Below, piece by piece: positions 9,633 to 63,112 of a DNA stretch of 64,000 nt. This DNA is from a virus: positions 53,565 to 117,564 of IMG/VR virus record IMGVR_UViG_3300005573_000064. One strand, written 5' to 3'. The translations under genes and the position numbers were made by a program. How positions within the stretch are numbered: the first letter of the stretch is position 1; each line of letters opens with the position of its first letter. A model generated the notes under the pieces. The model was not told the DNA's origin. It made no database searches and saw only the letters and a list, made by a program, of their open reading frames with translations.

Positions 9633-9703
9633 TATCAGTTCCTTTCCCGGACCTCAAAGTCCTTTCAATCGCTCCATTTATATTATAGCAGATTTTTATG
9701 CCG

Positions 9704-22949: not shown

Positions 22950-22970
22950 GTTCTTTTCCTCCATCCGAGA

Positions 22971-32634: not shown

Positions 32635-33045
32635 TTAAATATTTCTTTGCAATCTCTCCAATATTTTCGTAAGCCTTAGATATACCAATCCGGAGGATAA
32701 TACAAAAGTGAGGGAGAGAATGGCGAACATGTCATGTCTGCGCCATATCGCCACGGTTAGGTATGTCCATAGAGCGCACGAGACCAGAGAACTCACTCTT
32801 CTTAATTTCAGTTCACCGAAGGAAAGGCCGATGAAATGCAATATCGCGATTGCAAACACCACAAGGGTTAATAGCTCAAGCCCGAATATCTTAGGGGTCA
32901 CCAGATAGAGGGAACTGTTGGGCGGGGCGAGCCCAAAGAGGAGAAACACCGCTAACAGTATTATAGCCAAAATGGATTGAAGCTCTGCAATTTCTATATC
33001 CCAATAGTACAGGAGGTTCCTTACTAATCCTCTGATACGTTGCAT
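32635..33045 (-). CDS. Four-TM membrane protein (holin-like)
   Basis: Four hydrophobic segments. Confidence 0.5.
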   Translation of the reverse strand: MQRIRGLVRNLLYYWDIEIAELQSILAIILLAVFLLFGLAPPNSSLYLVTPKIFGLELLTLVVFAIAILHFIGLSFGELKLRRVSSLVSCALWTYLTVAIWRRHDMFAILSLTFVLSSGLVYLRLTKILERLQRNI

Positions 33046-36571: not shown

Positions 36572-38161
36572 CTAGAACGAGGACCTGGAAATATTTCCTA
36601 TCGACCCTCTTGAAAAGCCGGACCAAATTCCCCTGTCGGTCATGCCGCCTCGCATCCCCCTGAACATATCCTTCTCCAACTTTAACGTCCTTTTGGATGG
36701 AACGATTTTGGGAAGAGGCAGCGCATAGCTCTTCGTGGCTTTGACGTACTGCAGCTTGTCCTGATAATGAGAATGAAGAGCATAACACGCCAGACCGCAC
36801 GCATCGATTATATGTTCGTTTCTTCTGGTGGTCCTTATTATATTGGACCCCATCCCCACGATCTTGTAGTCCTTGAGCTGCTTGTCAAATATTCTATCGT
36901 AAACGCTAATCTCAAGCAGACCGTCCTCAAGGAGCTTCAACAGAGTATTTATCATGACGGTCTTAAATTGTTTTTTTACAGGCTTTCCGTCAACCGGGTC
37001 GTTGATTACGACATTCTCATTAAAGTTAAATCCCACGACTTTGGTGGCCAGTCCGGAGGAGGCGTTATTCTTTCCGTACAGTTTAAGCTCCTCGACCGCA
37101 TGTTCGCCATATCCCCTGTCCACATATATGAACTCAGGATCGAACGATTCGTTCAGCGCGATAACCCTCTTGACTGCATTGGTCAAAGTGTAATCGCTTC
37201 GGGGAACCTCCTCCCTGTAGATAAGCCTGTACTTTGTCTGGCCCGGCACGAGCTCCACTATGCAGATATTGACCCCGGCCTGATACTTATCCCAGTCCAC
37301 GCCCATCGCCCTATGAGCGCTCCCTCTTGGCGAGCCCCTCTCCACATATCTGTAATCAACCTTGGCTCTTTCTATGTCCTTCACTCTGAAGGCGCTGAAC
37401 CCGGCTTCAAGAAACTCAGCCAGATACTCGCAGGTGAACTCCATGTCGGTGGACAGGCTCCGTCTCTCGTCTATGTCCTCCTCAGTGAAGTCGGGGTTCT
37501 CGGTAATGGGAACGTGTATCTGATACCACTGTCCGGAAGTGTCACTGCACCATTCAAAAAATCTTCCCTTTTGCTCGGCAGGCGTGCTGCCTATGATGGC
37601 CCTTACTTCAAGACCGTCCGCGCTCTTGTACTTGTCTCCAAGTATGATAGGGGTCAAAGCCTTGAAGTCTCCATCCTGCATATAAGCGGCCTCGTCAACC
37701 AGCACCATGTTCGCACCCTTGCCTCGAAGGGCGCGGCCTTCCTTGTTGCCGCCCGTTCCAGTGGTCCTTCCCTTTATGGTGGAGCCGTTCTTAAACTTAA
37801 TCAGGTGGGGGAATTTGGTTCTTTCCTGGAGAGCATCGGATAGAACCGGGGTGGAGTTTATAAACTCATTGATAACTTCAAACAGCTCGGTCACCTTGTC
37901 ATCATCGGGACAGGCTATAAGCACATCATAATACTTATGAACGGAGACGGCCCACAGAGCCAGCACCGCCATGGAATACGACTTGCCTCCGCGTCTATGG
38001 GCCCTTATCACAATCCTCTTCTCATTACAAGATAGGATTCTTCTTTCCAAATAGTTGGCTTTGAAATTCTCTCCGCTTGCCGGATCCTTAAGAAAAGCTT
38101 CGGCCCACAGCAGAGGGGATGATAAGATTTCGCCTAGTTTTCTTACATCCTCGGAATCCAT
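36572..38161 (-). CDS. terL: Terminase large subunit
   Basis: Walker A HRRGGKS, Walker B VLVDEAA, GSTP, nuclease MGVDW and EHIIDA. Confidence 0.93.
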   Translation of the reverse strand: MDSEDVRKLGEILSSPLLWAEAFLKDPASGENFKANYLERRILSCNEKRIVIRAHRRGGKSYSMAVLALWAVSVHKYYDVLIACPDDDKVTELFEVINEFINSTPVLSDALQERTKFPHLIKFKNGSTIKGRTTGTGGNKEGRALRGKGANMVLVDEAAYMQDGDFKALTPIILGDKYKSADGLEVRAIIGSTPAEQKGRFFEWCSDTSGQWYQIHVPITENPDFTEEDIDERRSLSTDMEFTCEYLAEFLEAGFSAFRVKDIERAKVDYRYVERGSPRGSAHRAMGVDWDKYQAGVNICIVELVPGQTKYRLIYREEVPRSDYTLTNAVKRVIALNESFDPEFIYVDRGYGEHAVEELKLYGKNNASSGLATKVVGFNFNENVVINDPVDGKPVKKQFKTVMINTLLKLLEDGLLEISVYDRIFDKQLKDYKIVGMGSNIIRTTRRNEHIIDACGLACYALHSHYQDKLQYVKATKSYALPLPKIVPSKRTLKLEKDMFRGMRGGMTDRGIWSGFSRGSIGNISRSSF

Positions 38162-43468: not shown

Positions 43469-43630
43469 TTCAAATCTCAAGTTCAGTACTTCAAACCTGG
43501 AATTCAGCTTTTCAAATCCAGAATTCAGTACTTCAAAATCTCAAGTTCAGCCCTTTAAATCTGGAATTCAAATCCTGAAGTCAGTCCTTAAAATCTGGAA
43601 TTCAGTACTTTAAAGCCGGAATTCAGTACT
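43469..43630. repeat. Degenerate ~21-bp tandem repeat (about 7-8 units) at the strand-switch point
   Basis: Consensus approximately CTTCAAATCTGGAATTCAGTA. Confidence 0.85.
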
Positions 43631-43738
43631 AGGTGTACTGGTGGGGAATACGGGGGGATATTCCCGTTTTGCCCACGGTAACATCACGTGGCGACTTTGG
43701 GACAAGCCAACGCGCCCCCACGCCACAAGGAGACTCAA

Positions 43739-43948
43739 ATGAAACGCTTTCTCGTTGTTGTTGGTTTTGTTACCATCCTTGCGGTCCTCGTGACCGCAAC
43801 GCTGTTGTTTGTCGAGAGATTCACATCACACAAGCCCATGACCGCGTTGCGGTTATGGGTCAAAGACGTCCGCGCTATGGCGGACGCGGGCGTCACTGCA
43901 GCGAAAGCTGCAGCACCGAAAAAGGCCAAACCGACCGCGAAGAAGTAA
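43739..43948 (+). CDS. Small single-TM protein, family A copy 1 (69 aa)
   Basis: AAGGAG RBS before MKRFLVV; TM segment and basic tail. Confidence 0.85.
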   Translation: MKRFLVVVGFVTILAVLVTATLLFVERFTSHKPMTALRLWVKDVRAMADAGVTAAKAAAPKKAKPTAKK

Positions 43949-44050
43949 CTCGCGGTCGATGAGGATTGGGAGGGTCTAACGACCCTCCCTTTCCTCATGT
44001 GTGGCGATTGGACCAAAGGGCATAGCCCTCCACGCCACAAGGAGACTCAA

Positions 44051-44260
44051 ATGAAACGCTTTCTCGTTGTTGTTGGTTTTGTTACCATCCTTGCGGTCCT
44101 CGTGACCGCAACGCTGTTGTTTGTCGAGAGATTCACATCACACAAGCCCATGACCGCGTTGCGGTTATGGGTCAAAGACGTCCGCGCTATGGCGGACGCG
44201 GGCGTCACTGCAGCGAAAGCTGCAGCACCGAAAAAGGCCAAACCGACCGCGAAGAAGTAA
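44051..44260 (+). CDS. Family A copy 2, identical to copy 1
   Basis: Exact nucleotide duplicate offset by 312 bp. Confidence 0.85.
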   Translation: MKRFLVVVGFVTILAVLVTATLLFVERFTSHKPMTALRLWVKDVRAMADAGVTAAKAAAPKKAKPTAKK

Positions 44261-44374
44261 CTCGCGGTCGATGAGGATTGGGAGGGTCTAACGACCCTCC
44301 CTTTCCTCATGTAACGTGGCGAACTACTATGGGACAAGCCAACGCGCCCCCACGCCACGAGAAAGGACGTAAAG

Positions 44375-44935
44375 ATGTTGTTGATAGTCGTTGTTATTTC
44401 CCTCCTGGCCCTTTACGGGCTCGGAGTGGCCATCATCTCCGCTTCGAAAGAGGCGGAGAGCTTTATCTCCGCCTCATTGGCGGAGATCGCTAAAGCTTCT
44501 ATCTCCCAGGCTTCAACCTGGGAGGCGGATGGTAAGAACATCCGCTTTTCGTTTCTACGGGGAACCAACCTGCACTTTGGGGTGCAGGGCGATACCGCAT
44601 TTGTTCTGGTACCCGATGCGGGTACCGGTGAATTTATCACCGTCCGCCTCAACGCCCGGGCATACGCCCGGGCTAAGGCGGTCTGTTACGGTGAGCTCCC
44701 CCCAGCGGCTGAGCTGGAGGGAGAGACCTGGATACCGGACTCCAGAGGTATGAGGTTCTCCATGCAAATGGGAGAGAACCTCGTGCACTTTGGAGTGCAC
44801 GAGGGAGTCCCCTACCTCGTGGCGGGTGATCCCGCCACGGGGGTTGTAGTTCGTCTGACGGAGCGGGCTTATGCCCGCTTCGAGGGGGAATTCTTCCGCA
44901 TTCATGCGGGAGAAATTCCCAACCGCTGGAGATAA
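44375..44935 (+). CDS. TM-anchored protein with an internal domain duplication
   Basis: W..D...RFS....HFGV......D..TG..VRL..RAYAR occurs twice. Confidence 0.8.
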   Translation: MLLIVVVISLLALYGLGVAIISASKEAESFISASLAEIAKASISQASTWEADGKNIRFSFLRGTNLHFGVQGDTAFVLVPDAGTGEFITVRLNARAYARAKAVCYGELPPAAELEGETWIPDSRGMRFSMQMGENLVHFGVHEGVPYLVAGDPATGVVVRLTERAYARFEGEFFRIHAGEIPNRWR

Positions 44936-45018
44936 GCGGAAGGGGATTGAGGATTGGGAGGGTCTAACGACCCTCCCTTTTCTCATGTGACATCCTAAAC
45001 GGAAAGGAGGTGATTAGG

Positions 45019-45159
45019 ATGCTGTGGCTCATGATGTTGGGAATGGTGGTCCTCGCGGTGGAGTTAGCTGTCCACCGCGGGTGGATCGATTTCTCGGGCT
45101 ACCCGGCTGATCCGGATAAATACGTTCCGGACCAGCCTATCGACTGGCCCGAGGACTAA
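45019..45159 (+). CDS. 46-aa membrane peptide (below the ORF-track cutoff)
   Basis: AAAGGAGGTGA RBS; MLWLMMLGMVVLAVELAVHRGW...DWPED; flanked by the repeat element. Confidence 0.75.
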   Translation: MLWLMMLGMVVLAVELAVHRGWIDFSGYPADPDKYVPDQPIDWPED

Positions 45160-45233
45160 GAGGATTGGGAGGGTCTAACGACCCTCCCTTTCCTCGTGTG
45201 AGATTTTAAATTCATAAGAAAGGAGCGAGGAAG

Positions 45234-45527
45234 ATGAAGCTCTTCCACGGAACGAACCAGGTTCTATCGGAGCTGCTCCCTCCCTGTGACACGGGGAATC
45301 AGAGAGAGCTCCGCAGCCGTAACCTGGGAGTGGTCTTCGCCACTTCCGACTTTGGCGTGGCTCTGCGCTATGCGCAGGACGCTGCCAAGCGGTTGGGCGG
45401 CAGCCCGGTAGTTCTTGAGGTTACCGGTGACTTCCGGCCGTGGAAGAATAAGCCCGGATGCACTATCTTCATCGCTCCTTCCGCTCAGGTTGTCGGTATT
45501 AGAAAGGAGGTGAGGGGAAATGAATAG
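45234..45527 (+). CDS. Minimal ADP-ribosyltransferase (Arr-like fold)
   Basis: LFHGT, VFATSD, ALRYA, G.PVVLEV. Confidence 0.7.
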   Translation: MKLFHGTNQVLSELLPPCDTGNQRELRSRNLGVVFATSDFGVALRYAQDAAKRLGGSPVVLEVTGDFRPWKNKPGCTIFIAPSAQVVGIRKEVRGNE

Positions 45528-46077
45528 TATTAGTCTTGGACTAGTGGCGGAAGCCCTGGACTATGTGTCCTGGGAATCCGACCTGATCGCTAAGCTTCAA
45601 GACGAGCCCGTACTATCGTTCCCCTTCACCTCCTCTGTTGACTTAGGCCTTGGTCTGGCTTGGGAGTATTATGCCAAGGCTATGTCTCGAAGACGCGAGC
45701 CGCTTTCCGAGGAGCGGTTCGTGCGTCATTTCTCCCGCCAGGATGGCGTGGCCTACGGGGATATTTTCTCCGGTTGGCTGTTGGGGTCCCAAGTCGGAGA
45801 CCTATTCGCCATCTCGCACTTCGCCCCCGCTTCGATGCGGAGTGGTGTGAAGTTGCTTGAGGCCTTGGCGGGAGAATCCATCAAGTCCGTCATGATGGTG
45901 ACGGACGATCTGGTCGGTATGCTCGACCGTATCTCCGGCTGGCACCTGATTGCCTCCGGGATTCCTATGACCTTCCGTGATGAAGTGGTCATGAAGACAG
46001 TCTTTGTGAATGACTGTCTGTTCTCGGAAGGGCGTGCCGCATTGTTCCAGCGCATGGGGCAGTTGCTTGGACGATAG
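45520..46077 (+). CDS. Hypothetical protein (185 aa)
   Basis: AAGGAGGTG RBS; overlaps the ART gene. Confidence 0.75.
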   Translation: MNSISLGLVAEALDYVSWESDLIAKLQDEPVLSFPFTSSVDLGLGLAWEYYAKAMSRRREPLSEERFVRHFSRQDGVAYGDIFSGWLLGSQVGDLFAISHFAPASMRSGVKLLEALAGESIKSVMMVTDDLVGMLDRISGWHLIASGIPMTFRDEVVMKTVFVNDCLFSEGRAALFQRMGQLLGR

Positions 46078-46253
46078 CCCCTTATGTGTTGGAAGTATCA
46101 CCGGGAAGTGGCCGGGCATAGGGATTAGCCTGAGCCCTTGTTAGGCCGTTGTATCGGCCGGCTTCCTGGCTCGGGGTCTAACGACCCTCCCTTTTTTCAT
46201 GTGTGGCGTATGGGATAAAGGCCAACGTGCCTCCCTCGCCATAGGAGAATATT

Positions 46254-46667
46254 ATGGAAGTAGTTTACTATACGGCAGTTTTTATACTGTCGTATGCATT
46301 GATTCGCTGGGCGGTGGGCCTTCCCCGCCCGGCTGTCAAGCAGTTGGAGTTGAGGAGTCTGGTACTCCTCAGCTATGTCGTGTCTCAGGACATGTCTGAC
46401 TTTTATGAGAAATCGGACATGTCCTATCTGCAGAGCTTTTTAATCGATGTTTCCAGCGAAGTTGTGAGTAGCTGGAGACAGCTTAAGTCCAGAGATCCAG
46501 ATTCGTTATTTAGATCCCTGGATTCGAGCATAGCCCGCCTTAAGGACTATGCGTCTGTGGTTGCCGACATGGAGGGAGACGAGGCTTATGTAAGCCTCGT
46601 GGACTCCATGGGGCACAATTTGAAAGTGATGTTAGAGTATACCCTCGTTCAAGAGGGTATACTCTAG
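46254..46667 (+). CDS. TM-anchored helical protein
   Basis: AGGAG RBS after the leader hairpin. Confidence 0.75.
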   Translation: MEVVYYTAVFILSYALIRWAVGLPRPAVKQLELRSLVLLSYVVSQDMSDFYEKSDMSYLQSFLIDVSSEVVSSWRQLKSRDPDSLFRSLDSSIARLKDYASVVADMEGDEAYVSLVDSMGHNLKVMLEYTLVQEGIL

Positions 46668-46929
46668 TTTCTTATCACCGGAGGGTGGGCCGAGACACAC
46701 CTCTTCCGGCTCGATTACGTGACGCATTACTTAAGTAATGCATCGCGTATTCGGTGCCGGGCTCGGCCCAAGGGGTTCGTGATTATCCCCTCTGCCCGGC
46801 CCACTCCCCGGTGGTTTACTATTCACCTCTTGACGGGTGAATACGTTGAGGGTCTAACGACCCTCCCTTTTCTTATGTATGGCGAAACTGGACTAAAGGG
46901 CATAGCCCTCCACGCCATAGGAGGAAACC

Positions 46930-47133
46930 ATGAAACGGTTTCTGTTTCTTGTTGGGCTGCTTGCAACTCTTGCAGCCCTGGGGGTTGCGGTTCTGTTATT
47001 GATTGAGCGGGTTACCTCCCGCAAGCCACTCAAAGCCTCGATGCTCTGGGTGGCTGATCTCCGCGCGATGTACCGCGCGGGGGTTAGTGCAGCGAAAGCT
47101 GCACGCCCGAAGGAGACCACCACTAAGAAGTAA
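46930..47133 (+). CDS. Family A copy 3 (diverged)
   Basis: MKRFL..ER.TS.KP..LWV.D.RAM..AGV.AAKAA.PK. Confidence 0.85.
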   Translation: MKRFLFLVGLLATLAALGVAVLLLIERVTSRKPLKASMLWVADLRAMYRAGVSAAKAARPKETTTKK

Positions 47134-47232
47134 GTGGTGGTGATCGGATTGGGAGGGTCTAACGACCCTCCCTTTTTTCATGGATGGCGATAGGATTAAA
47201 GGGCATAGCCCTCCACGCCATGGGAGAATACG

Positions 47233-49673: not shown

Positions 49674-49994
49674 ATGTATACATACTTGAGTAATGCGTTC
49701 TCCATCCAAATGCTGGATGGAGACGTCACTGTCTCCTTCGCACGAATTAGTGCGGAGGAGGCTCGAGAGATATTATCCTATGGCTTTACATCGGCCATAG
49801 GACACCCGGACACCGCGAATGTGGTGTCGGGGATCTTGAGGATACCGGTACCCGTTAACCGGATATCGGTGAAATTAGGCAATGACGATCGGTTAATCGT
49901 GGCTCAGTATGTTGGGCCACGATTGCCGGAGGGGGCGACAGAGCTCCCTTCGGGAGCGCGGATAGAATTCTACAAGGTCGTTCTGTCCAAGTGA
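49674..49994 (+). CDS. acrIII-1: DUF1874 / AcrIII-1 family viral ring nuclease (anti-type III CRISPR)
   Basis: YLSNAFSIQML, SAIGHPDTA (catalytic His), NRISVKL, PRLPEG. Confidence 0.88.
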   Translation: MYTYLSNAFSIQMLDGDVTVSFARISAEEAREILSYGFTSAIGHPDTANVVSGILRIPVPVNRISVKLGNDDRLIVAQYVGPRLPEGATELPSGARIEFYKVVLSK

Positions 49995-50135: not shown

Positions 50136-50879
50136 ATGTACGAGTTTATTAAGAAGTCCGAGCAGCCCGAGTGGTTGAGGGCGGCTCTAAAGGAAGTTGC
50201 TGGAAACTCGCTGGACGGCAGAGTTTACGTGATCAAGCCGTCCACTGGATCGAATGACCCCGATTATGGGGTCGACATTGATCCCGTTCTTCAGGGTGCG
50301 GTTACCCTGATGAACAAAGTTCGGGTTGAGTTTAGCGGGGAGTTCTTCCTCGCCACGCAACTCGAACGAGTAGGGCAGGCCGCAAGACCGGTCTGCCGGT
50401 GCATCGTACAAGCCAAAGAGGGTGCAGCTCGCTTCCCGGTCATCAATGGCCGGTTCGGGCTGTTCCCACAATCGTTGCTCATCCGTTCGAGCAACGTTAT
50501 AGCAATATTGGAAACTCCGGAGGCAAAGTTGAAGTCTCTGCTGTCCGGTGGCAAGTTAATTGACCCGAACGGGATTTATGCATCCCTTCGGGCGATTGAA
50601 GAGTGGAAGCAGTTCTACTCTTCATACGCAAGAAAGAATGGTCAGTATTGGAACTGGCTTGGCGTGTCTCTAACGCCATCCAGTAGGTCAGTACTGGCCC
50701 AAGCTTCCGCCCAAGTGGCGGATGTCGTGATTAAAATCGGAGGGGCTGAATACCCCTTCGTGCCTAGCATTAATACTCGGACGGTGGCACCGGAAACACC
50801 GGTGTTACCGTTCGAGGAAATACCGGAGCGCGCTTTCGAAGCTGACGCTCCGGAAGTGAAGCAGGGGGTATTGGGATAA
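50136..50879 (+). CDS. Hypothetical protein (247 aa) directly upstream of the RNAP genes
   Basis: Hairpin-GGAAAGGA leader; GAGTTACAAGTAACTC palindrome at 50055-50076. Confidence 0.75.
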   Translation: MYEFIKKSEQPEWLRAALKEVAGNSLDGRVYVIKPSTGSNDPDYGVDIDPVLQGAVTLMNKVRVEFSGEFFLATQLERVGQAARPVCRCIVQAKEGAARFPVINGRFGLFPQSLLIRSSNVIAILETPEAKLKSLLSGGKLIDPNGIYASLRAIEEWKQFYSSYARKNGQYWNWLGVSLTPSSRSVLAQASAQVADVVIKIGGAEYPFVPSINTRTVAPETPVLPFEEIPERAFEADAPEVKQGVLG

Positions 50880-50951
50880 TACCCCTTTTGGTAACTGGAA
50901 AGGATCAGTCCACGGAAGGATTGATCCTTTCCTTTTTCGAGAGATGGAGGT

Positions 50952-52544
50952 ATGATGATGCCTCAGGAGTTCTTTGTAAAAGAACCCTCCCTGTGCCCCA
51001 GGGAGGGTAACGTGTTCACCATTCGGATTGACAATCCGGAAAAGCTGGTGAACACGGTTCTTCACCAGATCGCAAGACCGGAAGAAATTCCGGTCTTTAA
51101 AATCGGGGGAGCTCGAGTGAAGCTTCCCCCGATCGAAGTTTTCGGCCTCATCCCGCAGGATTTGTGGGACGGGGAAGGGCATAAAGTCGGGACGGTTGTG
51201 GAACTGCCCGACAGCTTGCGGGCTCTCGACACCCTGCTTGGAAATGTTAAAGCAGGGCGGTTGAGCGAGGGGCAGAGAGATCGGGCTCTGTCCTTGGTAT
51301 TGGGCGGTATGAAAGCTCATGTGTATGAGCTTACCCATCCCCGCGTTAAAACCCCCGGGCTGATGGGCTTCGCCCTTGGGGCGGACAGTCAGCTCGGGGA
51401 GAAAGAAATAGCAATCAGCTCCCGCCAAGCGGGAAGACTGATTGCAAAGTTATTTCGCACCGGAGACAGGGGCGGCCTACTCGAGTATTTGCTTACTCGG
51501 GTTGAGCCGTTCCTGGCGCTGGCGGGGCGCGACCTGTCCTCCAGGCTTCGTTCCGGTGCGCGCCCGAGCGAGGAGGACAGGAAAGTAATCCGTCAAATAG
51601 CCCTCGGGCTCGATGGGGTGGCTGTCTTTGGCGTTCGATATCCGAATGCCAGCAGTACGTCCCACGAGCTGAAGACGCTCCGGATTTATAAAGGAGCGCC
51701 CGGGGACTATATTTATATCTCCCCAGTCGCCCTGGTGCGGAGGCATCAGGGCGATTGTGATGGGGACCGTCTGGGAATTCACTTCGTCCCCCGTGTGGTG
51801 GACGGGGTGACCAAGTCCCCGCATCCCCTCATTTGGAGACGCGAATATCAAAGCGCGCATTCCGCTTTCAATCTTGACGATTTAGTTGTCCCCGAGGGGA
51901 AATCCGACCTTGAAATCATGGCCGGGTTCTCCGAGCGGGGCCGGTGGGTCGGGATGCTCACCTATAATTTCTGGCTTCTCTTCCTAGCGCTTTCCAATCA
52001 TTGGAGGGAGCTAGGAATGGAGGCACCGGACAAGCTCTGTCCGGTTGTCCTTGACCTATTCACGCCTCTGGTCGAGGGCGTCATGAACGCCCGAAAGGGC
52101 CAAGGGGCCGGTACGATAGATGGCGAGAGCCTGGCCGCTCAGGTCTGCGAGATGTTCGCAGGCCAACGAGATATGGACAGGGTTCTCGCCCGTCTTCCCA
52201 TGAAGGAAGACGAAAGTGAATATGATGAGGAGAAGTTCTCCAAGTCTCAGTTAAGATTTCTGAGACGAGGGCTTCTCCTCGTCTCCGGGGGGAACCAACG
52301 GGTTCGGTTGAATGCGGCCAATGCCGCGTGTTCGGACCCGGTTCGCCTCGCATTCGCCCTCCGGTTCAAAGAGAGGGCGATGAAAATGCTAATAAACCAA
52401 ATCGGAGAGCGGAGCCTCTCCGAAACTATCCTAAATAGCTTGCTGGTCCAAGGCAAGCTTCCGTGGAAGGCCGGCAGGACGCTGACCTTCGCGGATGTCA
52501 ATGGAACCTCGGCTGATTTCATATCGGCCGAGGAGGAGTTTTAG
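50952..52544 (+). CDS. Two-barrel RNA polymerase, beta'-like catalytic subunit
   Basis: EIAIS, VFGVRYP (RxP), IYISP..RHQGDCDGDRL (DxDGD at 51753-51767), later VGMLTY and VMNARK. Confidence 0.8.
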   Translation: MMMPQEFFVKEPSLCPREGNVFTIRIDNPEKLVNTVLHQIARPEEIPVFKIGGARVKLPPIEVFGLIPQDLWDGEGHKVGTVVELPDSLRALDTLLGNVKAGRLSEGQRDRALSLVLGGMKAHVYELTHPRVKTPGLMGFALGADSQLGEKEIAISSRQAGRLIAKLFRTGDRGGLLEYLLTRVEPFLALAGRDLSSRLRSGARPSEEDRKVIRQIALGLDGVAVFGVRYPNASSTSHELKTLRIYKGAPGDYIYISPVALVRRHQGDCDGDRLGIHFVPRVVDGVTKSPHPLIWRREYQSAHSAFNLDDLVVPEGKSDLEIMAGFSERGRWVGMLTYNFWLLFLALSNHWRELGMEAPDKLCPVVLDLFTPLVEGVMNARKGQGAGTIDGESLAAQVCEMFAGQRDMDRVLARLPMKEDESEYDEEKFSKSQLRFLRRGLLLVSGGNQRVRLNAANAACSDPVRLAFALRFKERAMKMLINQIGERSLSETILNSLLVQGKLPWKAGRTLTFADVNGTSADFISAEEEF

Positions 52545-52546
52545 TC

Positions 52547-54454
52547 ATGAAGAACATGAAAATTCACTCATTTAAGGAAGCCCTCGGCTTCCTTGAAAAA
52601 GCGGGGATAAAGTTCACCCCGCTAACGGGTGTAAGAGGTGACATCGATACGGTCGATGTCATCTATCGAGGGGTTCGTTTTCCCCTCATAGTCCCGACTG
52701 TCACTCCTTTAGGAGACGACACGTTCGGGGAGATTGTTGAGGTCGGAGAGGCCCATGAAGGCCCCGATGGCCTCGTTAGAACGCGTAGGATATTTCATCC
52801 TACGCTAAATAACTCCGAAGTCAGGAAGCTTCGGAGATTTATGGCAGAGGAGGACGTAAAATCCGTCCTCGCTTCCGGAAGCTGGTTCGTTACAGGCTTC
52901 TGGAACGCATATGCGGAGGCGCTCGCGAAGGCGCACTTCTCCGCTGAAGCGATGCCGAGGCTTAGCTCCTCGTGGGCGGCTAGCCTCTTCAACAAGAATG
53001 TTCAGATTTTGCTGGCTTCTCTCGAGCTAGTAAAATCCGATGCCCACGCCCAGGCCCATGGACGGGTTTGGGTTCTCGCGTATCCCGGAAGGGATACAGC
53101 TCAGTCTCATGGAGGAGCGATAATCTCCGACCGCCTCAGCCCGGAGGTGGTCGAATATACTAGAAGGGCTTTCCACAAATTCGCAGCGGAACATCGTTGC
53201 GATATTATCACCACCGGGAAGGGCCACCCCGGTCGGAAGGTTGTATTCGCCCCGAAAGGGGTGAGCCCGAGCCTCTCAAGGCTCTGGGTCTGGCCGAATT
53301 TTGGCTGTCAAGCGCGGTCGCCACGTGAAATGTTCACTGGCGTCCCGAACGCCCAACAGTTTGTTAACGACCGAGGCGTTACGCCTCGGGTGACCTCCCT
53401 TGAGGGAGGGCCGGACTTCCTATCCGGTCGCATAAAATTCGTCAATGCTGCATTTCTAAGCTTTGACGAAGTAGTAACAAAAGATCCGGACGGGAAACCG
53501 TTGAATGTTGACCAGGTCCTTGGTACGGGCTGGTCCCACATCGATGGCATGTTCGATAGCCATCGAGACGAAACGCTCCTCGTCCCGTTCAAGGGCGAGA
53601 GCGTGGAGGATATTAAAGCCGCCTTCGGGACGGAATATGTCACGAAGGTATCCCGTCCCGTAGGGAACCTCCAGGAGGTTTCCTGGCAGATTATAAGAAG
53701 GGCAACAAATAGGTCCTCAAGAGGGTGGAAGGCCCTCAATCCGGACGCGGTAAAGGGGATGGTCATCCCTGAGCGCGCCCTATTACTAGAGAAGCGGGAT
53801 AATGAGGACTTCTTCCGTCCGATTTATCTAGTCTTCGCGAGCGAGGCGGTTGTGAAGAAGGAGGCGTCTCGCTCTGTATTGCGGATGCTGGCGTCCCGGC
53901 TTCCGCAACCCAAGCAGTTCGACCCTGCAACCCCAAGGGAGAAATTTGGGGAGGTTCTTGCGGGGATACGGGGGGAGCTGAAAGAGATAGGGGATAGCGG
54001 ATATTCCCGGATCTTCCGCCTTCTCCCGGTGCTCCACGATGAGCACGAGCTAATCAAATCCGCCCTTGAGGTGAAGGTCCTTGGCTTCACCGAGGGGGTG
54101 GATGAAGCAGGAGAGCCGATCATTCTCCCGATAGGGGAGAATGAAGTCGGCACGCTCCATGGCGGCCTCGTCCCCGTCATGGATGGAACGTCCGAAGCTA
54201 AGGCGGTGGTTGGCGAAATGCCAATCATGCGGATGCCGGAGGACGAACAGTTCGGAGAAGAACTCCGGCTGGATGTGTTACATAACGGGATCCGAATGGA
54301 CCCGTTTATGGTTCTGGGGAAGGACGAGCTCGAATTCCCCAAGGATGAAAAGATATCGGAGCTTCTGGACTTCGAAGCTCGTCTGGCTCGGGCGATCGAG
54401 CAGCAGCCGGTAATGGCCGCTCGTGAACTCGAAGCGGAGGACTGGCTTTCGTAG
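52547..54454 (+). CDS. Two-barrel RNA polymerase, beta-like subunit
   Basis: GWSHIDGM (cf. GYNFEDS), GWKALNPDAVKGMV (cf. GDKx7KGV), PIYLVFASEAV (cf. PVDIVLNP); starts 2 bp after the DxDGD gene. Confidence 0.65.
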   Translation: MKNMKIHSFKEALGFLEKAGIKFTPLTGVRGDIDTVDVIYRGVRFPLIVPTVTPLGDDTFGEIVEVGEAHEGPDGLVRTRRIFHPTLNNSEVRKLRRFMAEEDVKSVLASGSWFVTGFWNAYAEALAKAHFSAEAMPRLSSSWAASLFNKNVQILLASLELVKSDAHAQAHGRVWVLAYPGRDTAQSHGGAIISDRLSPEVVEYTRRAFHKFAAEHRCDIITTGKGHPGRKVVFAPKGVSPSLSRLWVWPNFGCQARSPREMFTGVPNAQQFVNDRGVTPRVTSLEGGPDFLSGRIKFVNAAFLSFDEVVTKDPDGKPLNVDQVLGTGWSHIDGMFDSHRDETLLVPFKGESVEDIKAAFGTEYVTKVSRPVGNLQEVSWQIIRRATNRSSRGWKALNPDAVKGMVIPERALLLEKRDNEDFFRPIYLVFASEAVVKKEASRSVLRMLASRLPQPKQFDPATPREKFGEVLAGIRGELKEIGDSGYSRIFRLLPVLHDEHELIKSALEVKVLGFTEGVDEAGEPIILPIGENEVGTLHGGLVPVMDGTSEAKAVVGEMPIMRMPEDEQFGEELRLDVLHNGIRMDPFMVLGKDELEFPKDEKISELLDFEARLARAIEQQPVMAARELEAEDWLS

Positions 54455-54554
54455 CCCAAAGCTCCACTTATGATGTTAAAATGTTTTCATAAATCGCCAC
54501 CGGAGAGTTGGCCAGGGGCTCGCATCTGCGAGACCACTCTTCCGGTTGGCGATG

Positions 54555-54603
54555 AAATGGCGATCCTGCGTCTCGTGAGGGATGCAGGGTCGCCATTTTT
54601 TTT
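54555..54603 (+). terminator. Strong intrinsic terminator
   Basis: AAATGGCGATCCTGCGTCTC-gtga-GGGATGCAGGGTCGCCATTT followed by a T-run. Confidence 0.85.
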
Positions 54604-54723
54604 GCGGCCTGCGGGAAGGGACTGGCATTAAGCCGAGTCTCGAAATCCGGAAGCCGCCCGCTGAGTTTGAAATCGATTACTTGAGTAATCCTTCCGAGGA
54701 ATTACTTGAGTAATTTTTTAATA

Positions 54724-54880
54724 AGATTTGGAAAGTGAAAGGAAGTCCCGGACTGCAGGCGTGAGTGAAAAGTCTCTCGCCTCTGTCCGGCCCGTGATCG
54801 GAGCGGGAAAACGGGAGGGACACGATGAAAGGGAGCATTGGATGCGTTCGAGTCGCGCCCATCTGTCCCTCTCTTCCGAT
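54724..54880 (+). ncRNA. Putative structured ncRNA, copy 1, with a T-loop module
   Basis: Multi-stem fold that covaries with copy 2; GCG-TTCGAGT-CGC T-arm. Confidence 0.65.
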
Positions 54881-54890
54881 ACGCAATTAT

Positions 54891-55053
54891 AGATTTGGCA
54901 AGTGAAAGGAAGTTCCGGGTGTCGTGCGCGATGGGTGAAATATCCCCTCGCCTCCGCGCCCCGGCCCGTGATCGGAGCGGGAAAACGGGAGGAGCGGGAT
55001 GAAGGGAGCATTGGATGCGTTCGAGTCGCGCCCATCCTCTCCTCTCTTCCGAT
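54891..55053 (+). ncRNA. Putative structured ncRNA, copy 2
   Basis: Junctions and most loops match copy 1; stems show compensatory changes. Confidence 0.65.
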
Positions 55054-55100
55054 GATTTGGAATACAATATCTGACATAATATTAATTGGAGTGAATTGGA

Positions 55101-57898: not shown

Positions 57899-58606
57899 AT
57901 GACTAGGAAGGCGACAGCGGCCCTCATTCCCGTCAGTGAGAATATGTTAATAGATATTATTAATAATCACCGGGGGAGTGGCCGGGCTCATTGCGAGAAC
58001 GAGGTGCCGCTTGATTTGACGAGACATGACCTGAGCGGCCTTGATTTGTCGGGTTTGGACCTGAGAAAATGCATTCTGTACGGGTGCAACCTAACTGGAA
58101 GCGGTCTCAGGGGGTCTAATTTGTATAGGGCGGACCTAAGGAAGGTTACCGCGCCTGGTGCAATCTTTGACGGTGCGGTTCTGGTAGGGGCGAAGCTTGA
58201 CGGAGCCATGCTTCGGGAGGCGTCCTTCAGAAACGCGAAGCTGACGAAGGCGGTGCTGACGGGTGCGGTTCTGTGTGACGCGGTTCTTGACGGGGCGTGC
58301 ATGTTCAAAAGCCGGCTGAGAAAAGCGGACCTCACCCGCGCCAGCTTGAAGGGGGCGGACATGTCGTTTTCCGACATAATCGGAGCCATGTTCGCAAACG
58401 CCATCCTTGACGGCTCCGTTATGCTTGACGTGCGCGCCTATCATGCCGACTTCACCCGCGCCAGCCTGAGAAACGTGATGCTTTCATCGAATAGCTATTG
58501 CTGCCCCAATATCGAGACGGCCGACTTTACGGGCGCTGAGATTGAGGGCTTCGTTGACGGCTTCGCGGAAACTGTTTTGAGGAAGGCGTGCGCATTACCT
58601 AAGTAA
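57899..58606 (+). CDS. Pentapeptide repeat protein
   Basis: A(D/N)Lxx repeats throughout. Confidence 0.92.
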   Translation: MTRKATAALIPVSENMLIDIINNHRGSGRAHCENEVPLDLTRHDLSGLDLSGLDLRKCILYGCNLTGSGLRGSNLYRADLRKVTAPGAIFDGAVLVGAKLDGAMLREASFRNAKLTKAVLTGAVLCDAVLDGACMFKSRLRKADLTRASLKGADMSFSDIIGAMFANAILDGSVMLDVRAYHADFTRASLRNVMLSSNSYCCPNIETADFTGAEIEGFVDGFAETVLRKACALPK

Positions 58607-59077
58607 TGTAGCACGGACCGAGTATGTCATGCATATTTACTAAGAGTAATGGCATACACCGGAGGGATGGCCGGGCATAGGGGTAAACAGCCGAAGCGCG
58701 TTCCCGGGAAGCCATTCCCCGCGCGCGATTACTCAAGTAATTAGGGGTGCCAAGCTCAGCAATAAACGGGGTGCATTACTTAAGTAATGTGCAACCAAGC
58801 TCAGCCGTAAGTGGATGCATTCGCGCGCGATTTTCTAAGCGGAAAACGGGCTCGGCTGGACGCGCCTAGGCCCGACAAAGACGCGGCTTATTTTGGCCTA
58901 TTGCGGCCCGTACTCCCCGGTGTAGGTTTGCTCTTCCCGTAGGGAAGAACAAACCGTTATCCCTAGTAATGTGTAACCAAGCTCATCAATAAGCGAGGCA
59001 AACCTCACGGGGACATGCCTGAAGGTATGCCCCCCGGCCTCACTCCCCCGGTGATAAAAAATATTTTTTTCACGGGC

Positions 59078-59106
59078 TTGCACATCCATGAAAAGTATGC
59101 TATAAT
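59078..59106 (+). promoter_or_regulatory. Sigma70-type promoter
   Basis: TTGCAC-17 bp-TATAAT with extended TG and an AT-rich UP-like region; flanked by a GCTTGCAC/GTGCAAGC inverted repeat. Confidence 0.8.
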
Positions 59107-59111
59107 GTATG

Positions 59112-59310
59112 TGCAAGCTGAAAAATGCTTGCGGCCGATAAGCCCGATCCGATCAGATGGTTAGATGCCGAGGCCCACTAACGGAATTCTGGTTGCGTAG
59201 GACTTAGCCCGACATGAAAAACGGGCTGAACGAATGCGGCCTACCACCCGTTAGAGGGGGACACGCTTGGCATGGTGGTGAGGACAGGATCCTTAGGGGG
59301 GGATTATGCC
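59112..59310 (+). ncRNA. Putative rod-shaped structured RNA (~200 nt)
   Basis: Nested pairings GATCC/GGATC, ATGCCGAG/CTTGGCAT, CTAACGG/CCGTTAG, GTAGG/CCTAC, AGCCCG/CGGGCT. Confidence 0.55.
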
Positions 59311-59560
59311 CAAACTGCGTCCGAAGCAGGGGGATAGCGAAGTTAAACGCTACGCGATCTACGCTCAGCCTTCGGCTTCGCGTCAATCTCAGCCTTCGGC
59401 TTCGATTGATTAATAAATAATAAATTAAAATAAAATAAAAGGTTTAAGTACGTGGGCGTCACGTACTTAAAGAAACGGGGTTGGCACGGGACCCCGCTAG
59501 ACAGGGAGGCTTGAAACATAGCCTCCCTTTCGCATATGTGACATCATGAAAGGACAGAAA

Positions 59561-59980
59561 ATGGAGAACGATAACGGGAAGGATTGCGCCATGTTATGGG
59601 TTGACGGGGCGTGTTCCGGCAACCCCGGGCCCGGAGGATGGGCCGCGCTTGCAATCATTGGCGGAAGAGAGGTGACCGCAAAGGGAAGCGCGCCAGAGAC
59701 AACCAATAATAGAATGGAGCTTATGGCGCTGCTTCAAGGCCTTAAACTGGTTCCCAAAGAGTTGCCGGTGGTGGTGAAAACGGACAGTGCGTATATCATC
59801 ACCTGCACAAGGCACTGCAAGGAGCCGGACTGGATTGCAGCCCACAAGAACCCCGGGCTAGTATTGAAAATAGCCAGAGAGCTTGAGGGAAGAAAGGTTC
59901 GGATTGAAAAGGTGAAGGCTCATAACGGAGTCCTCATGAACGAGACCGTTGACAGAATGGCCCGTTCCATGATTAGATAG
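59561..59980 (+). CDS. rnhA: Ribonuclease HI
   Basis: VDGACSGNPGPGGW, TTNNRMEL, TDSAY, KVKAH, NETVDRMA. Confidence 0.95.
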   Translation: MENDNGKDCAMLWVDGACSGNPGPGGWAALAIIGGREVTAKGSAPETTNNRMELMALLQGLKLVPKELPVVVKTDSAYIITCTRHCKEPDWIAAHKNPGLVLKIARELEGRKVRIEKVKAHNGVLMNETVDRMARSMIR

Positions 59981-59994
59981 TAACGGAGGCCGAT

Positions 59995-60357
59995 ATGGAC
60001 GATGAATTGAACATATCCGTATTTGAAATAACGGGCGATTCGCATTGCGTGACTTCAAGTGCCGGCCAAAAGGTTTACGACCGACTGGCGCTCGCCCTGA
60101 GAAACAAGCGAAACGTCACGCTCTCATTCTGCAATGTAACCGTACTCACCCCGGTGTTTCTTAATACGGCAATCGGCCAGTTGTACGGGAAATTCGACAG
60201 AGAGCAAATACGTTCAATGCTCAAGGTCCGGGACTTTCCACCCGATGACCTTGCGCTACTGAAGCGCGTGGTTGACAACGCTACGCAATATTTCAGCGGT
60301 CTGCGTAAATTTCCACGGACCGAGGGTGAGGATTCGAAGCGCGAGACTTCAAACTAA
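59995..60357 (+). CDS. STAS-like (DUF4325) protein
   Basis: GQKVYD..VTLSF.NV..LTPVFLNTAIGQLYG. Confidence 0.8.
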   Translation: MDDELNISVFEITGDSHCVTSSAGQKVYDRLALALRNKRNVTLSFCNVTVLTPVFLNTAIGQLYGKFDREQIRSMLKVRDFPPDDLALLKRVVDNATQYFSGLRKFPRTEGEDSKRETSN

Positions 60358-60364
60358 TTTGCAA

Positions 60365-60394
60365 TTGACATCGAACGGAATGTCAGGGTATAAT
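60365..60394 (+). promoter_or_regulatory. Sigma70-type promoter
   Basis: TTGACA-18 bp-TATAAT; contains a TGACA/TGTCA inverted repeat. Confidence 0.75.
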
Positions 60395-60426
60395 CAAGGC
60401 AATAAAGGCTTTCGGAGGAGAATCGC

Positions 60427-61020
60427 ATGGAACCTAACGAAACTATCGAGGATTTAAAGGATCAGTATCGTTCCATACTGGCCAGCGAGGTTGACAATAA
60501 CTGGGTGCGCGGTGACATCGCCACCATTGTGACTTCGCTGCACGATGCGGAGATCGAGAAGAATGGAAAGTCGGGCATTATTGACGACTTTCTGGAGTCA
60601 ACCGGGGAGAGTCGCAGCGCGTTCTCCCAGTATCGGTGGGTTGCCGGAATATTCAATGACGACAGCCTGCGAGCCCTTCCCGTAACCTGGACCCACTACC
60701 GCGTTTGCGCTGGTTTGGAGGACAGGGACGAGGCCATCAAGTGGCTTATTAAATCCAGCGATGAGGGGTGGAGTTGCTCAAGACTTATCGAGGAGCTCAA
60801 AGGCGCCAAGCTGAACAAGGCCATCGATGAAGGCCTAAGGTGTTCCCAATGCGACAAGTCGGTGACCAAGGAGATATCCGTTTCGCTATCAATCAATCGC
60901 AAGGGCAGGAGACCCGAGAAGAGAACATTCTGTTCGATTAACTGCGCCTGGCTTCACCTTTCGGAACTCCATCAGGAGGAGCTGGCCGCCAACTCCTCGG
61001 TGGAGATATTTGCAACATAA
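60427..61020 (+). CDS. Putative DNA-binding protein: DUF1016/YhcG-N-like helical domain plus C-terminal Zn finger
   Basis: VTWTHYR..WL...EGWSCSRL; CSQC...FCSINC. Confidence 0.55.
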   Translation: MEPNETIEDLKDQYRSILASEVDNNWVRGDIATIVTSLHDAEIEKNGKSGIIDDFLESTGESRSAFSQYRWVAGIFNDDSLRALPVTWTHYRVCAGLEDRDEAIKWLIKSSDEGWSCSRLIEELKGAKLNKAIDEGLRCSQCDKSVTKEISVSLSINRKGRRPEKRTFCSINCAWLHLSELHQEELAANSSVEIFAT

Positions 61021-61093
61021 CGTAAGTAAATAGCATGTAACATAACCACGGCCGAGGCTAACCACCCTCGGCTTTTTGGACGGAGGATTTTAT

Positions 61094-61312
61094 ATGAAAA
61101 ACGAAGCCGAGTTGGAAAAGGTTTACGCCACAACTCAAAGGTTGTGCAAGACCAGGAAGATGGACTACATAGGCATCCAACTTATGAATGGAACCCCTAT
61201 GTTTTACACCTCGGACATTGCAAGGAAGGAGGTGGGAGACCTGGTGAAGGTCCCCAAGGACACTCCCTGGTCCGAAGTGCTTGAGCATCTTAACAATAGC
61301 ACCCTCGAGTAA
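61094..61312 (+). CDS. Hypothetical protein (72 aa)
   Basis: GGAGG RBS before MKNEAE; follows a terminator at ~61052-61077. Confidence 0.65.
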   Translation: MKNEAELEKVYATTQRLCKTRKMDYIGIQLMNGTPMFYTSDIARKEVGDLVKVPKDTPWSEVLEHLNNSTLE

Positions 61313-61449
61313 ATGGGAAGTAATGGTTGGAGGCGGTAAGGTTAACAAGTATTTGTTCTAAAAGGGGATAGCTTTGGCTACCCCTGTTTTTTATAGTTAG
61401 CAAAAATAAAGATCCGCTTATGAGAAAAATTAGGAAAGGAGTGCGAGAA

Positions 61450-61563
61450 ATGACACTTGATACGGTTCTTATGGCTATCACCCTGGGTGTTATGCTTTTT
61501 GAATTTATCATCAGCATGATAACGGTGATGCAGGCCGCAAAGTCGGAAGCTCAGGAGGCGTAG
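61450..61563 (+). CDS. 37-aa membrane peptide
   Basis: AAAGGAG RBS; MTLDTVLMAITLGVMLFEFIISMITV. Confidence 0.5.
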   Translation: MTLDTVLMAITLGVMLFEFIISMITVMQAAKSEAQEA

Positions 61564-61577
61564 AAGTACGCGATTAG

Positions 61578-62126
61578 GTGAAACTAAAATACAAGGAAAG
61601 GAGGGGCATCAATCCGTCACCCTTCGGGGAGTCGGATTCCAGCCGAAAAGTTATGAGAGGACACTCCATAAAGTCCATAGGCTTATGGGACTACGAGGAG
61701 GTCAGGGAGAAGCTTCTGAGAGGCGACTTGGAATTTGTGTCCGGAGGGGTGAGTTACGGAATAAGACCGGACCTTATGAAGAGGTACGCTGTTTTTCTCA
61801 AGGACCCCTATTGCAAAGGATGCGGGTTAAGGATAAACTACGCTATCCTGCATATCGATATGGACAATCCGAACGATAAGTATAGAGAGGCGTACCTGAG
61901 ATTTTACGGATACAACGGACGGCTTATGACGGTGGATCATATAATTCCGAAATCCCAAGGCGGAACGAACGATCCCGATAATCTCCAGACCATGTGCGTT
62001 AAATGCAACATGTGGAAGAAAGACGACTTGTCCTGGAGATACTATATGAGCATAAAGGTTAGGAACTGGAGGCTCAAACATCCGGAATGGTACGCGACTG
62101 AAGTAGTGGAGGGGTTGGCTAAATGA
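61578..62126 (+). CDS. HNH endonuclease
   Basis: CKGCG..MTVDHIIPKSQGGTNDPDNLQTMCVKCN. Confidence 0.92.
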   Translation: MKLKYKERRGINPSPFGESDSSRKVMRGHSIKSIGLWDYEEVREKLLRGDLEFVSGGVSYGIRPDLMKRYAVFLKDPYCKGCGLRINYAILHIDMDNPNDKYREAYLRFYGYNGRLMTVDHIIPKSQGGTNDPDNLQTMCVKCNMWKKDDLSWRYYMSIKVRNWRLKHPEWYATEVVEGLAK

Positions 62127-63112
62127 ATGCTTACGAAGTATTGGGAGTGAGCCCGACCGCCACCGAGGAGGAGGTGCGCAGGGCTTACCGTGACAAGGCC
62201 AGGGACCTTCATCCCGATCAGGGTGGAGACGAGGAGCGAATGAAGGAGCTTAACGTAGCTCGTGACATCCTGGTCGACCCCGAGAAGAGGATGAAACACG
62301 ATATCGAGAACGGCCTTGCGTCCAATCCAAATCCCTTTCCCGTCTTCGAGGTTCCCTTCGGGGATGCGTTCTTCGGCCCCGGAGGGTTCTTCAGCATCGA
62401 CATAGGGAACATCATGAATACGATGTTCAACAGGGGTCAACCGGAAAAGTCGATTGACATAACGACAAGGGTGACCGTTCCCCTGGATGTCATGCTAAAG
62501 GGCGGGGAGACCGAGGTCCGGTATCAGCGAGCGGGAAAGTGTGAGAAGTGCAACGGGACCGGGTCGAAGGATGGGGTCATTGTTTCATGCGGTAATTGCA
62601 ACGGAACCGGCATCGTGACTATAACGGAGGGGGTTTCCGGAGGAAGAATGACCTACATGCGACCCTGTTCGGTTTGCAACGGGACTGGAAAAGCCCCGTC
62701 CGAACCATGCTCCGAGTGTAATGGAAAGGGAACCGTTCCCGAATCGAGGACGGTGTCGGTAAGGTTTCCCGCCAGGAGCGAGGATGTCTTCGGATACCGG
62801 ATAGATGATGGGGGCGACTGGTCCCCGCGATTACTCAAGTATGGGAACCTGCACGTTGGCTTCGATGTTCTCCCGGTGGACGGCTTTTCACTGACGGGAC
62901 TGTCAGTGAGGGACGTGATTATCGAGGGAACAGTCATGGTAAGGCTTGGCGATATAGTCGATGGAAAGGCGAAGGTTGATTTGCCAGCGGGCGAGGCGAC
63001 CATAACCGTCATTGACAAGGACCAATCTTTGAAAAATACGATTGATGTCAATGTCGGAGGATGGGAGCACAGGCTGAATGTGAAGTATGTCATGGATGAC
63101 AAACGGTCCTGA
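62123..63112 (+). CDS. dnaJ: DnaJ-like co-chaperone
   Basis: J domain with HPD and four CxxCxGxG repeats. Confidence 0.92.
   Translation: MNAYEVLGVSPTATEEEVRRAYRDKARDLHPDQGGDEERMKELNVARDILVDPEKRMKHDIENGLASNPNPFPVFEVPFGDAFFGPGGFFSIDIGNIMNTMFNRGQPEKSIDITTRVTVPLDVMLKGGETEVRYQRAGKCEKCNGTGSKDGVIVSCGNCNGTGIVTITEGVSGGRMTYMRPCSVCNGTGKAPSEPCSECNGKGTVPESRTVSVRFPARSEDVFGYRIDDGGDWSPRLLKYGNLHVGFDVLPVDGFSLTGLSVRDVIIEGTVMVRLGDIVDGKAKVDLPAGEATITVIDKDQSLKNTIDVNVGGWEHRLNVKYVMDDKRS

Follow-up and report, generated by a model that had tools for sequence, protein, structure and literature searches.

RNA polymerases (RNAPs) with two barrels are already known from phages. The non-virion RNAPs (nvRNAPs) of PhiKZ (7ogp) and AR9 (7s00) consist of four β/β′ pieces and a fifth subunit, and have about twice the total mass of the protein pair described below. 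In insect viruses, LEF-9 and LEF-8 belong to a four-subunit enzyme. The subunit split of the PhiKZ/AR9-type enzymes has been described (PMC7824862), and LEF-9 and LEF-8 are presented as a strongly reduced pair, β′-like (about 500 amino acids, aa) and β-like, with little beyond the barrels, switch 2 and the funnel (PMC2919709). For YonO and gp64, DNA-dependent RNAP activity has been proven (PMC5467207, PMC10770324). RNAPs of the YonO/QDE-1 type form a second major clade, characterised in PMC10770324 and PMC7824862 as being without the β lobes and the clamp architecture of multisubunit RNAPs (msRNAPs). Natural subunit fusions in mobile elements are represented by the yeast killer-plasmid Rpb2::Rpb1 and the Corynebacterium β::β′ protein NCgl1702 (PMC2919709). 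Here we describe a locus in IMGVR_UViG_3300005573_000064, a linear IMG/VR virus record of 117,564 bp. The whole stretch that was analysed, hereafter the window, is bases 53,565–117,564 of that record (64,000 nucleotides, nt), and all positions below are those of the window. Two adjacent open reading frames (ORFs) of 530 and 635 aa most probably encode a heterodimeric DNA-dependent RNAP of a minimal, msRNAP-type two-barrel family, for which we infer synthesis of RNA on DNA. The ORFs and their signals are as follows.

50136–50879, plus strand: ORF of 247 aa, from the ORF list
50897–50937, plus strand: terminator-like hairpin, 15 pairs then TTTTT, between the 247-aa ORF and the β′-like gene
50952–52544, plus strand: ORF of 530 aa, predicted from fold and motifs to be the gene for a β′/Rpb1-like subunit
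52530–52549, plus strand: translational-coupling junction read from the sequence, with the GAGGAGGAG ribosome-binding site, a TAG stop, 2 nt and the next ATG
52547–54454, plus strand: ORF of 635 aa, predicted from fold and motifs to be the gene for a β/Rpb2-like subunit
54555–54608, plus strand: strong intrinsic-terminator-like hairpin, 20 pairs then a T run, closing the polymerase operon

On re-reading the sequence, the three ORFs and every quoted motif were located exactly where a preliminary description of this DNA had placed them, and the ATG of the 635-aa gene indeed begins 2 nt past the stop of the 530-aa ORF. The GAGGAGGAG ribosome-binding site of the 635-aa gene sits within the 3′ end of the 530-aa gene. 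Together the two proteins amount to 1165 aa compared with 1342 + 1407 aa for Escherichia coli β and β′ (42%), in keeping with the earlier claim of less than half the cellular size.

Like the PhiKZ and AR9 nvRNAPs, the proposed enzyme is phage-encoded, split and of the β/β′ two-barrel type with no α or ω (α and ω families were not searched for here), and its carrier appears likewise to be a large contractile-tailed phage. Chains 7s00_c of AR9 (Z 6.0) and 7ogp_E of PhiKZ (Z 5.3) are among the nine best structural matches of the 635-aa model. However, there are two chains here (530 and 635 aa), each with N-terminal domains and a barrel, no separate β′ C-terminal subunit was identified, and no sequence similarity was detected by tblastn in 50,697 phage records. 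The locus resembles baculovirus and nudivirus LEF-9/LEF-8 in having a strongly reduced β′-like and β-like pair, and the matches of the 530-aa model in the BFVD viral library include a nudivirus RNAP and LEF-9 (ranks 11 and 45), but there is no detectable sequence relation. SPbeta YonO, P23-45 gp64 and gp96, crAss-like phi14:2 gp66 and QDE-1 are also small or minimal two-barrel RNAPs and carry the eight catalytic residues of which seven are invariant here and the eighth is probably D322, and two fused relatives of the present proteins, P0023 and P0030, are single chains as well, of about 1200 aa. In contrast to the YonO/QDE-1 clade, the present proteins match cellular β and β′ along their length; chains of YonO, gp64, gp96, gp66 and QDE-1 are absent from the structural matches listed. 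P0023 has the β-then-β′ order of the killer-plasmid protein and NCgl1702, whereas the family also includes the opposite fusion, P0030, occurs mostly in split form and has no detectable sequence relation to either.

The assignment of the first protein begins with its motifs. The 530-aa protein carries V228-R-Y-P231 and then H265-QGDCDGD272, with 34 residues from P231 to H265. The record's 256 stop-to-stop ORFs with 100 aa or more contain a single D-x-D-[GA]-D, which is the one in this ORF, and R-x-P precedes it by 39 residues. Because the motif is unique among these ORFs and its residues are invariant across relatives, the co-occurrence is beyond chance. An AlphaFold2 model built from an alignment of the protein's relatives (predicted local distance difference test, pLDDT, 67) returned 331 Foldseek matches in the PDB at E≤1e-3, led by 8x6f_D (E 6.1e-6), and the best 50 of the 331 are without exception the largest subunits of RNAPs from bacteria, plastids or eukaryotes. 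VIA-align places residues 4–288 on Rpb1 29–517 (Z 9.4–10.1) and the barrel, residues 131–286, on Rpb1 344–516 with a root mean square deviation (rmsd) of 3.6–4.3 Å over 117–125 residues; the barrel also aligns with the p97 N domain. A search of BFVD gave 20 matches at E≤1e-3, of which nine are named, and seven of these are viral RNAP subunits. The RNAP matches in this library come from jumbo-phage, marseillevirus, nudivirus and other giant-virus records, at 9–16% identity. As predicted by the model, the protein is of the RNAP β′/Rpb1 fold, with a clamp-like N-terminal part (about 4–130) ahead of a region (about 131–288) in which a switch-2-like segment is joined by a double-psi barrel that bears R229-Y-P231 and D268-C-D270-G-D272. 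A greedy hhalign comparison of the β′-like family with E. coli β′ is colinear over 161 columns, setting R229-Y-P231 on R-A-P, D268-C-D-G-D272 on DFDGD and residues 90–169 on E. coli β′ 301–380, at an E value of 0.035, which is not significant. R329, R381 and K382 are invariant across family members.

The second protein was assigned by fold. GWSHIDGM (328–335), GWK395-ALNPDAV-K403-GMV and PIYLVFAS (425–432) follow one another in the 635-aa chain. Its monomer model is poor (pLDDT 55.6 overall and <50 at residues 220–341 and 387–411), and Foldseek ranks two chains of second-largest RNAP subunits only 12th and 14th, with probabilities of 0.23 and 0.09. An exhaustive wide search with VIA against 48,161 representative chains found nine at Z≥5; rows 1–11 are all from RNAP entries, that is, 11 of the 12 best. 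The chains at Z≥5 include Xanthomonas β, African swine fever virus RPB2, A135, vaccinia Rpo132, nvRNAP chains of AR9 and PhiKZ, and the isolated β1 and B1–B2 lobe domains (3mlq_A, 4kbj_A), which are matched by residues 4–181. In a second look with VIA, which drew on Foldseek's top 1000, the best 50 matches listed are all second-largest RNAP subunits (Z 5.0–7.0). Residues 4–181 lie on the lobes of Bacillus subtilis β (35–494; Z 7.0, rmsd 3.8 Å, 147 residues) and residues 260–564, colinear with the lobes, on yeast Rpb2 767–1096 (rmsd about 4.0 Å, about 132 residues). In the numbering of PMC2919709 this part of Rpb2 contains D837, K979, K987 and R1020. The predicted model accordingly divides into N-terminal lobe-like domains (about 4–240), a catalytic region with D322, K395 and K403 (about 260–564) and a C-terminus (565–623) predicted to clasp the N-terminus of the β′-like subunit. 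By its modelled fold alone, the 635-aa protein is a shrunken β/Rpb2. What speaks for this assignment is that the RNAP matches are uniform and colinear, not any single score. An SBHM (sandwich-barrel hybrid motif) ‘flap’ inserted in the β barrel is described as a feature of the msRNAP clade (PMC7824862). In the present model, residues 338–388 form a small α+β unit that matches assorted small domains, and D322 and K395 are only about 70 residues apart.

Eight residues are given as invariant in all two-barrel RNAPs by Ruprich-Robert & Thuriaux 2010 (PMC2919709), and seven of them are invariant here: R229, P231, D268, D270 and D272 in all ten aligned family members, both fusions included, and K395 and K403 in 19 of 19. 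The counterparts on the Rpb1 barrel are R446, P448 and the DFDGD loop. The preliminary description, which had read R-x-P and D-x-D-G-D on one barrel and K-x7-K on the other, was correct on this point. K395 and K403 are eight residues apart, as are K979 and K987 of Rpb2 (K1065 and K1073 in E. coli β), and G404 is glycine in 18/19. The eighth, acidic residue, the counterpart of Rpb2 D837, is probably D322, which is aspartate in 16/19 and lies near residues 268–271 of the partner in the predicted interface. D333 of GWSHIDGM, which had been proposed for this role, is aspartate in only 4/6 close relatives, so that D322 is the better candidate. E261 may be an alternative to D322; it is invariant (19/19), yet falls outside the confident predicted contacts. 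K225, R257, R260 and K438 are likewise invariant in 19/19, and K438 could, going by spacing only, correspond to Rpb2 R1020 (35 residues for K403–K438 vs 33 for K987–R1020).

The catalytic metal-binding and basic residues are kept in relatives down to 16–23% identity. With such invariance it is very improbable that the pair is a relic that has lost catalysis or plays a structural part, such as a decoy binding host factors, or that these are non-polymerase ORFs with a Cas8b-like 635-aa protein. The Cas8b idea derives from a feature search of the ESM Atlas in which Cas_TM1802 clusters ranked first (score 0.94, 199/256 features in common). However, shuffled proteins score 0.9 in this search in 4 to 10 of 100 cases and Pfam shows no Cas match at E≤1, and the Cas8b/Csh1 assignment was rejected, having no Pfam match or other support. 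The structure search of the same Atlas, for which the Atlas model was very poor (pLDDT 0.30), returned unrelated folds and was also rejected.

That the two proteins are halves of a single polymerase is indicated by gene order, by natural fusions and by modelling of the complex. The β′-like gene is directly followed by the β-like gene in 5/5 further distinct loci (L001, L002, L005, L006 and L007; L003 and L004 duplicate the L001 and L002 contigs and were left out of the count). In L007 the β-like gene is split over two frames, in a contig with a coverage of 3.3x. Moreover, the halves are fused in nature in both orders. P0030 (1235 aa) has the β′-like half at 9–547 (hhalign probability 99.5, E 1.6e-22) and the β-like half at 756–1095, and P0023 (1185 aa) has the β-like half at 115–645 and the β′-like half at 665–1175 (hhalign probability 100, E 1.7e-47); their metal loops read QGDYDGD and HQGDDDGD. 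The complex was modelled with residues 1–460 of the β′-like and 200–635 of the β-like chain, in three runs with three controls. The runs gave ipSAE scores of 0.75, 0.80 and 0.82 (median 0.80), against 0.00 for the best of the three controls. The ipSAE mark used is reached by 58/80 solved complexes and 2/110 mismatched pairs, a calibration that is rough since own alignments were used. At least 76% of contacts are shared between runs, with a partner pLDDT of at least 78 and 458–504 interface contacts. The predicted interface sets β′-like residues 226, 228, 232 and 268–271 against β-like residues 318–320, 322–323, 395 and 403–405, and also joins the β-like C-terminus (565–623) with the β′-like N-terminal part (51–146). 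Contact of the β C-terminus with the N-terminal part of β′ is the arrangement found in cellular RNAP. The modelling thus supports a double-psi barrel in each protein, with the barrels facing as one active site, and the composite site that the preliminary description had anticipated is what the predicted complex contains. Taken together, the folds, invariant residues, fusions and predicted composite active site uphold its account of a split, very divergent two-barrel polymerase in β′-like then β-like order.

Several results weigh against this reading. At the sequence level, Pfam (E≤1) and PHROGs have no match for any of the three ORFs, phmmer and profile searches of PDB sequences found none for either protein, and hhalign of the β-like family with E. 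coli β gave nothing. At the structural level, Foldseek has no match for the 635-aa model at E≤1e-3. A VIA Z below 8 can reflect a common arrangement, and the Z values of this low-confidence monomer are at most 7.0. Residues 289–530 of the β′-like protein fall outside every structural alignment among the matches listed, and neither bridge helix nor trigger loop was found in an hhalign comparison of residues 290–470 with E. coli β′ 480–1000. A shared ARKG tetrapeptide was set aside as bridge-helix evidence, as that comparison found nothing. D322 is replaced by glycine in the three most distant members, and the complex score may echo the many solved β/β′ complexes, in which case it measures likeness and not binding. 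The Cas8b ranking discussed above is also to be counted here, as is the absence of conventional DNA polymerase domains considered next.

The catalytic residues are common to the whole two-barrel superfamily, including PolD (PMC10770324), and would also suit a two-barrel polymerase with another chemistry: a DNA polymerase or primase of the PolD kind that replicates the phage genome, or an RNAP like QDE-1 that copies RNA or makes primers. The polymerase genes have an RNase H gene 5 kb downstream, and neither a PolA nor a PolB domain turned up in the 117,564-bp record and two relatives of it (G000, G001 and G002), all of which are incomplete (65–79% complete). This absence leaves some probability to a DNA-synthesising role; however, the missing parts may encode a conventional DNA polymerase. 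Moreover, no PolD, QDE-1 or crAss gp66 chain is among the matches listed, the best of which are msRNAP subunits, and the β-like N-terminal lobes, the β′-like clamp and the switch-2 region are all present in the models. The switch-2 region is treated in PMC2919709 as a mark of DNA-dependent transcription enzymes. DNA-dependent transcription is favoured because of the lobes, clamp and switch-2-like region and the uniform msRNAP matches, and we regard a different chemistry as improbable. A search of the record for a T7-like RNAP domain was blank and uninformative, as the control for that family matched nowhere.

As a heterodimeric DNA-dependent RNAP on the cellular multisubunit plan, the enzyme might work as follows. 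The folds, conserved residues, fusions and predicted interface were computed, whereas its template, product, timing and promoters are those we infer. The genes being translationally coupled, the two chains would be expected in equal amounts. They would join over a very large predicted interface, with the β-like C-terminus clasping the N-terminal clamp of the β′-like chain, and the two double-psi barrels would meet to form a single active site. If the residues act as in cellular RNAP, the catalytic Mg2+ would be bound by D268, D270 and D272, D322 would help to hold the second metal, R229 would stand beside the incoming nucleoside triphosphate (NTP), and K395 and K403 would point towards the 3′ end of the RNA and the phosphates of the NTP. 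The most likely job of such an enzyme would be DNA-dependent transcription of phage genes without the host RNAP, by way of phage-specific promoters and a specificity factor, for which the 247-aa protein is one candidate.

The 247-aa ORF has a relative at the equivalent position in L001 (37% identity, E 6e-46), where 22 nt separate it from the β′-like gene. L001 and L002 give identical values for this relative and count as one independent relative. When the window's plus-strand ORFs with 60 aa or more, located from 43 kb onwards, were compared with the 21-kb L001, only the three-gene block was strongly and colinearly matched, which suggests that the three genes are a linked module. This conservation would fit a three-subunit enzyme, an extension of the proposed heterodimer in which the 247-aa protein binds as a promoter-specificity or assembly factor, like gp226 of AR9 or gp68 of PhiKZ. 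However, the single independent relative remains the only one; the word-indexed protein search found no further homologue, and the 247-aa ORF has no Pfam (E≤1) or PHROG match. Comparison of the 247-aa pair with E. coli β and β′ by hhalign gave nothing. The β′-like gene of L005 is preceded by 417 bp (1–417) of non-coding, repetitive DNA with recurring peptide-like words in its translations, and in L007 an unrelated ORF lies upstream of the polymerase genes. In the window itself, the 15-pair terminator-like hairpin separates the 247-aa ORF from the polymerase genes. A third subunit is therefore possible but doubtful, and the earlier suggestion of a specificity or accessory subunit comes down to synteny in one related virus, with the ORF absent upstream in L005 and L007.

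The family is rare and apparently undescribed. The 530-aa protein has seven relatives among 5.8 billion clusters, and the 635-aa protein has five close relatives, its profile search finding only 22 proteins among 1.84 billion cluster representatives. The relatives' contigs comprise two in IMG/VR and three short ones in JGI/ENA metagenomes. One relative is encoded on a contig of 225 kb. No relative was found in the 50,697 GenBank phage records (tblastn, four queries) or in the GTDB species-representative prokaryote genomes. Pfam found no domain in the 10 relatives scanned, and PF00623 (RNA_pol_Rpb1_2) and PF00562 (RNA_pol_Rpb2_6) had no match here; a six-frame search of the whole record was blank, with controls matching in 14/14 genomes. 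Since Pfam, PHROGs and BLAST do not detect the family, it would be missed by phage annotation pipelines. No description of it was found in the literature, although a prior listing among the 23 two-barrel RNAP families (PMC10770324 Supplementary Data 3; Drobysheva et al. 2021) is possible. Phage two-barrel RNAPs as such are known, and what looks new is the two-chain, 1165-aa msRNAP architecture in β′-then-β order, along with the two fusion orders and the thermophilic origin.

Phage two-barrel RNAPs (YonO, crAss gp66, P23-45 gp64/gp96, PhiKZ, AR9) show which parts of the universal transcription enzyme are dispensable, and the present family would keep the β/β′ plan of lobes, clamp and two barrels within 1165 residues and two chains. 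It would add a data point on the evolution of the two large RNAP subunits. A hot-spring origin favours stable proteins for structural work, the natural split and fused versions allow comparison, and the locus may amount to a compact transcription module with its own promoters, probably insensitive to rifampicin. We tentatively raise, as a speculation with rather less than an even chance of being right, that this is the smallest enzyme yet with cellular β/β′ architecture: a self-sufficient 1165-aa heterodimer of a thermophilic phage, without α, ω, σ and probably the whole C-terminal half of β′ including the trigger loop, reading its own promoters, perhaps with the 247-aa protein, in a lineage fused both ways. 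If true, it would offer a natural minimal core for asking what an msRNAP-type enzyme really needs, and a model for heterodimeric or fused ancestors before the last universal common ancestor.

The carrier is most likely a large contractile-tailed phage, uncultured and from hot springs. CheckV estimates the 117,564-bp record to be 65% complete. Two hot-spring metagenome runs from two different studies contain positions 50136–54600 (shares of sampled words 0.98 and 0.45; the run with 0.98 may be the source), and because of this occurrence the phage is probably thermophilic. Positions 1 to about 43 kb of the window carry a virion module on the minus strand, and plus-strand genes, a block to which the polymerase genes belong, begin at about 44 kb. 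Genes recognised around the locus are listed below.

21252–22964, minus strand: tail sheath, virion module
33024–34799, minus strand: portal, virion module
36572–38161, minus strand: large terminase, virion module
49674–49994: STIV B116-like protein (Pfam PF08960, E 1.3e-13)
Within 57899–63112: nearby genes for a pentapeptide-repeat protein, RNase H, a STAS-like DUF4325 protein, an HNH nuclease and a DnaJ homologue

On the minus strand, the whole record (window 1–15676 and upstream) contains giant ORFs of 4662, 2630, 1991, 1949, 1273 and 1219 aa; for the two that lie within the window (1946 and 1990 aa), neither Pfam nor PHROGs gave a credible match.

As it stands, the earlier linking of the enzyme with nearby promoter-like repeats and ncRNAs is not supported. 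The search for sigma-70-like promoters showed no enrichment (4 found vs 4.2 expected), and Rfam had no match across 43–64 kb. A short hairpin with variable paired stems and an invariant CCCGGAAAGG stands directly before start codons at 48127, 48870, 49656, 50112 and 55584, thus preceding five plus-strand genes, the 247-aa ORF included. A 12-mer of these elements occurs in three exact copies vs 0.72 expected. Just past the polymerase terminator, at 54724–55062, are two tandem units of about 170 nt with no Rfam match. At 43970–47190, the first plus-strand genes are headed by seven copies of a GC-rich hairpin, GAGGGTC-TAAC-GACCCTC, with a pyrimidine run and an ATG or GTG coming after every copy; these hairpins could be intrinsic terminators or hairpin promoters. 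The strand-switch region contains an exact direct duplication of 286 nt (43715–44312; start-to-start distance 312 nt). Finally, an array of roughly 21-nt units (TTCAAATC..GAATTCAGTACT) with an iteron-like look lies in the divergent intergenic region at 43469–43630.

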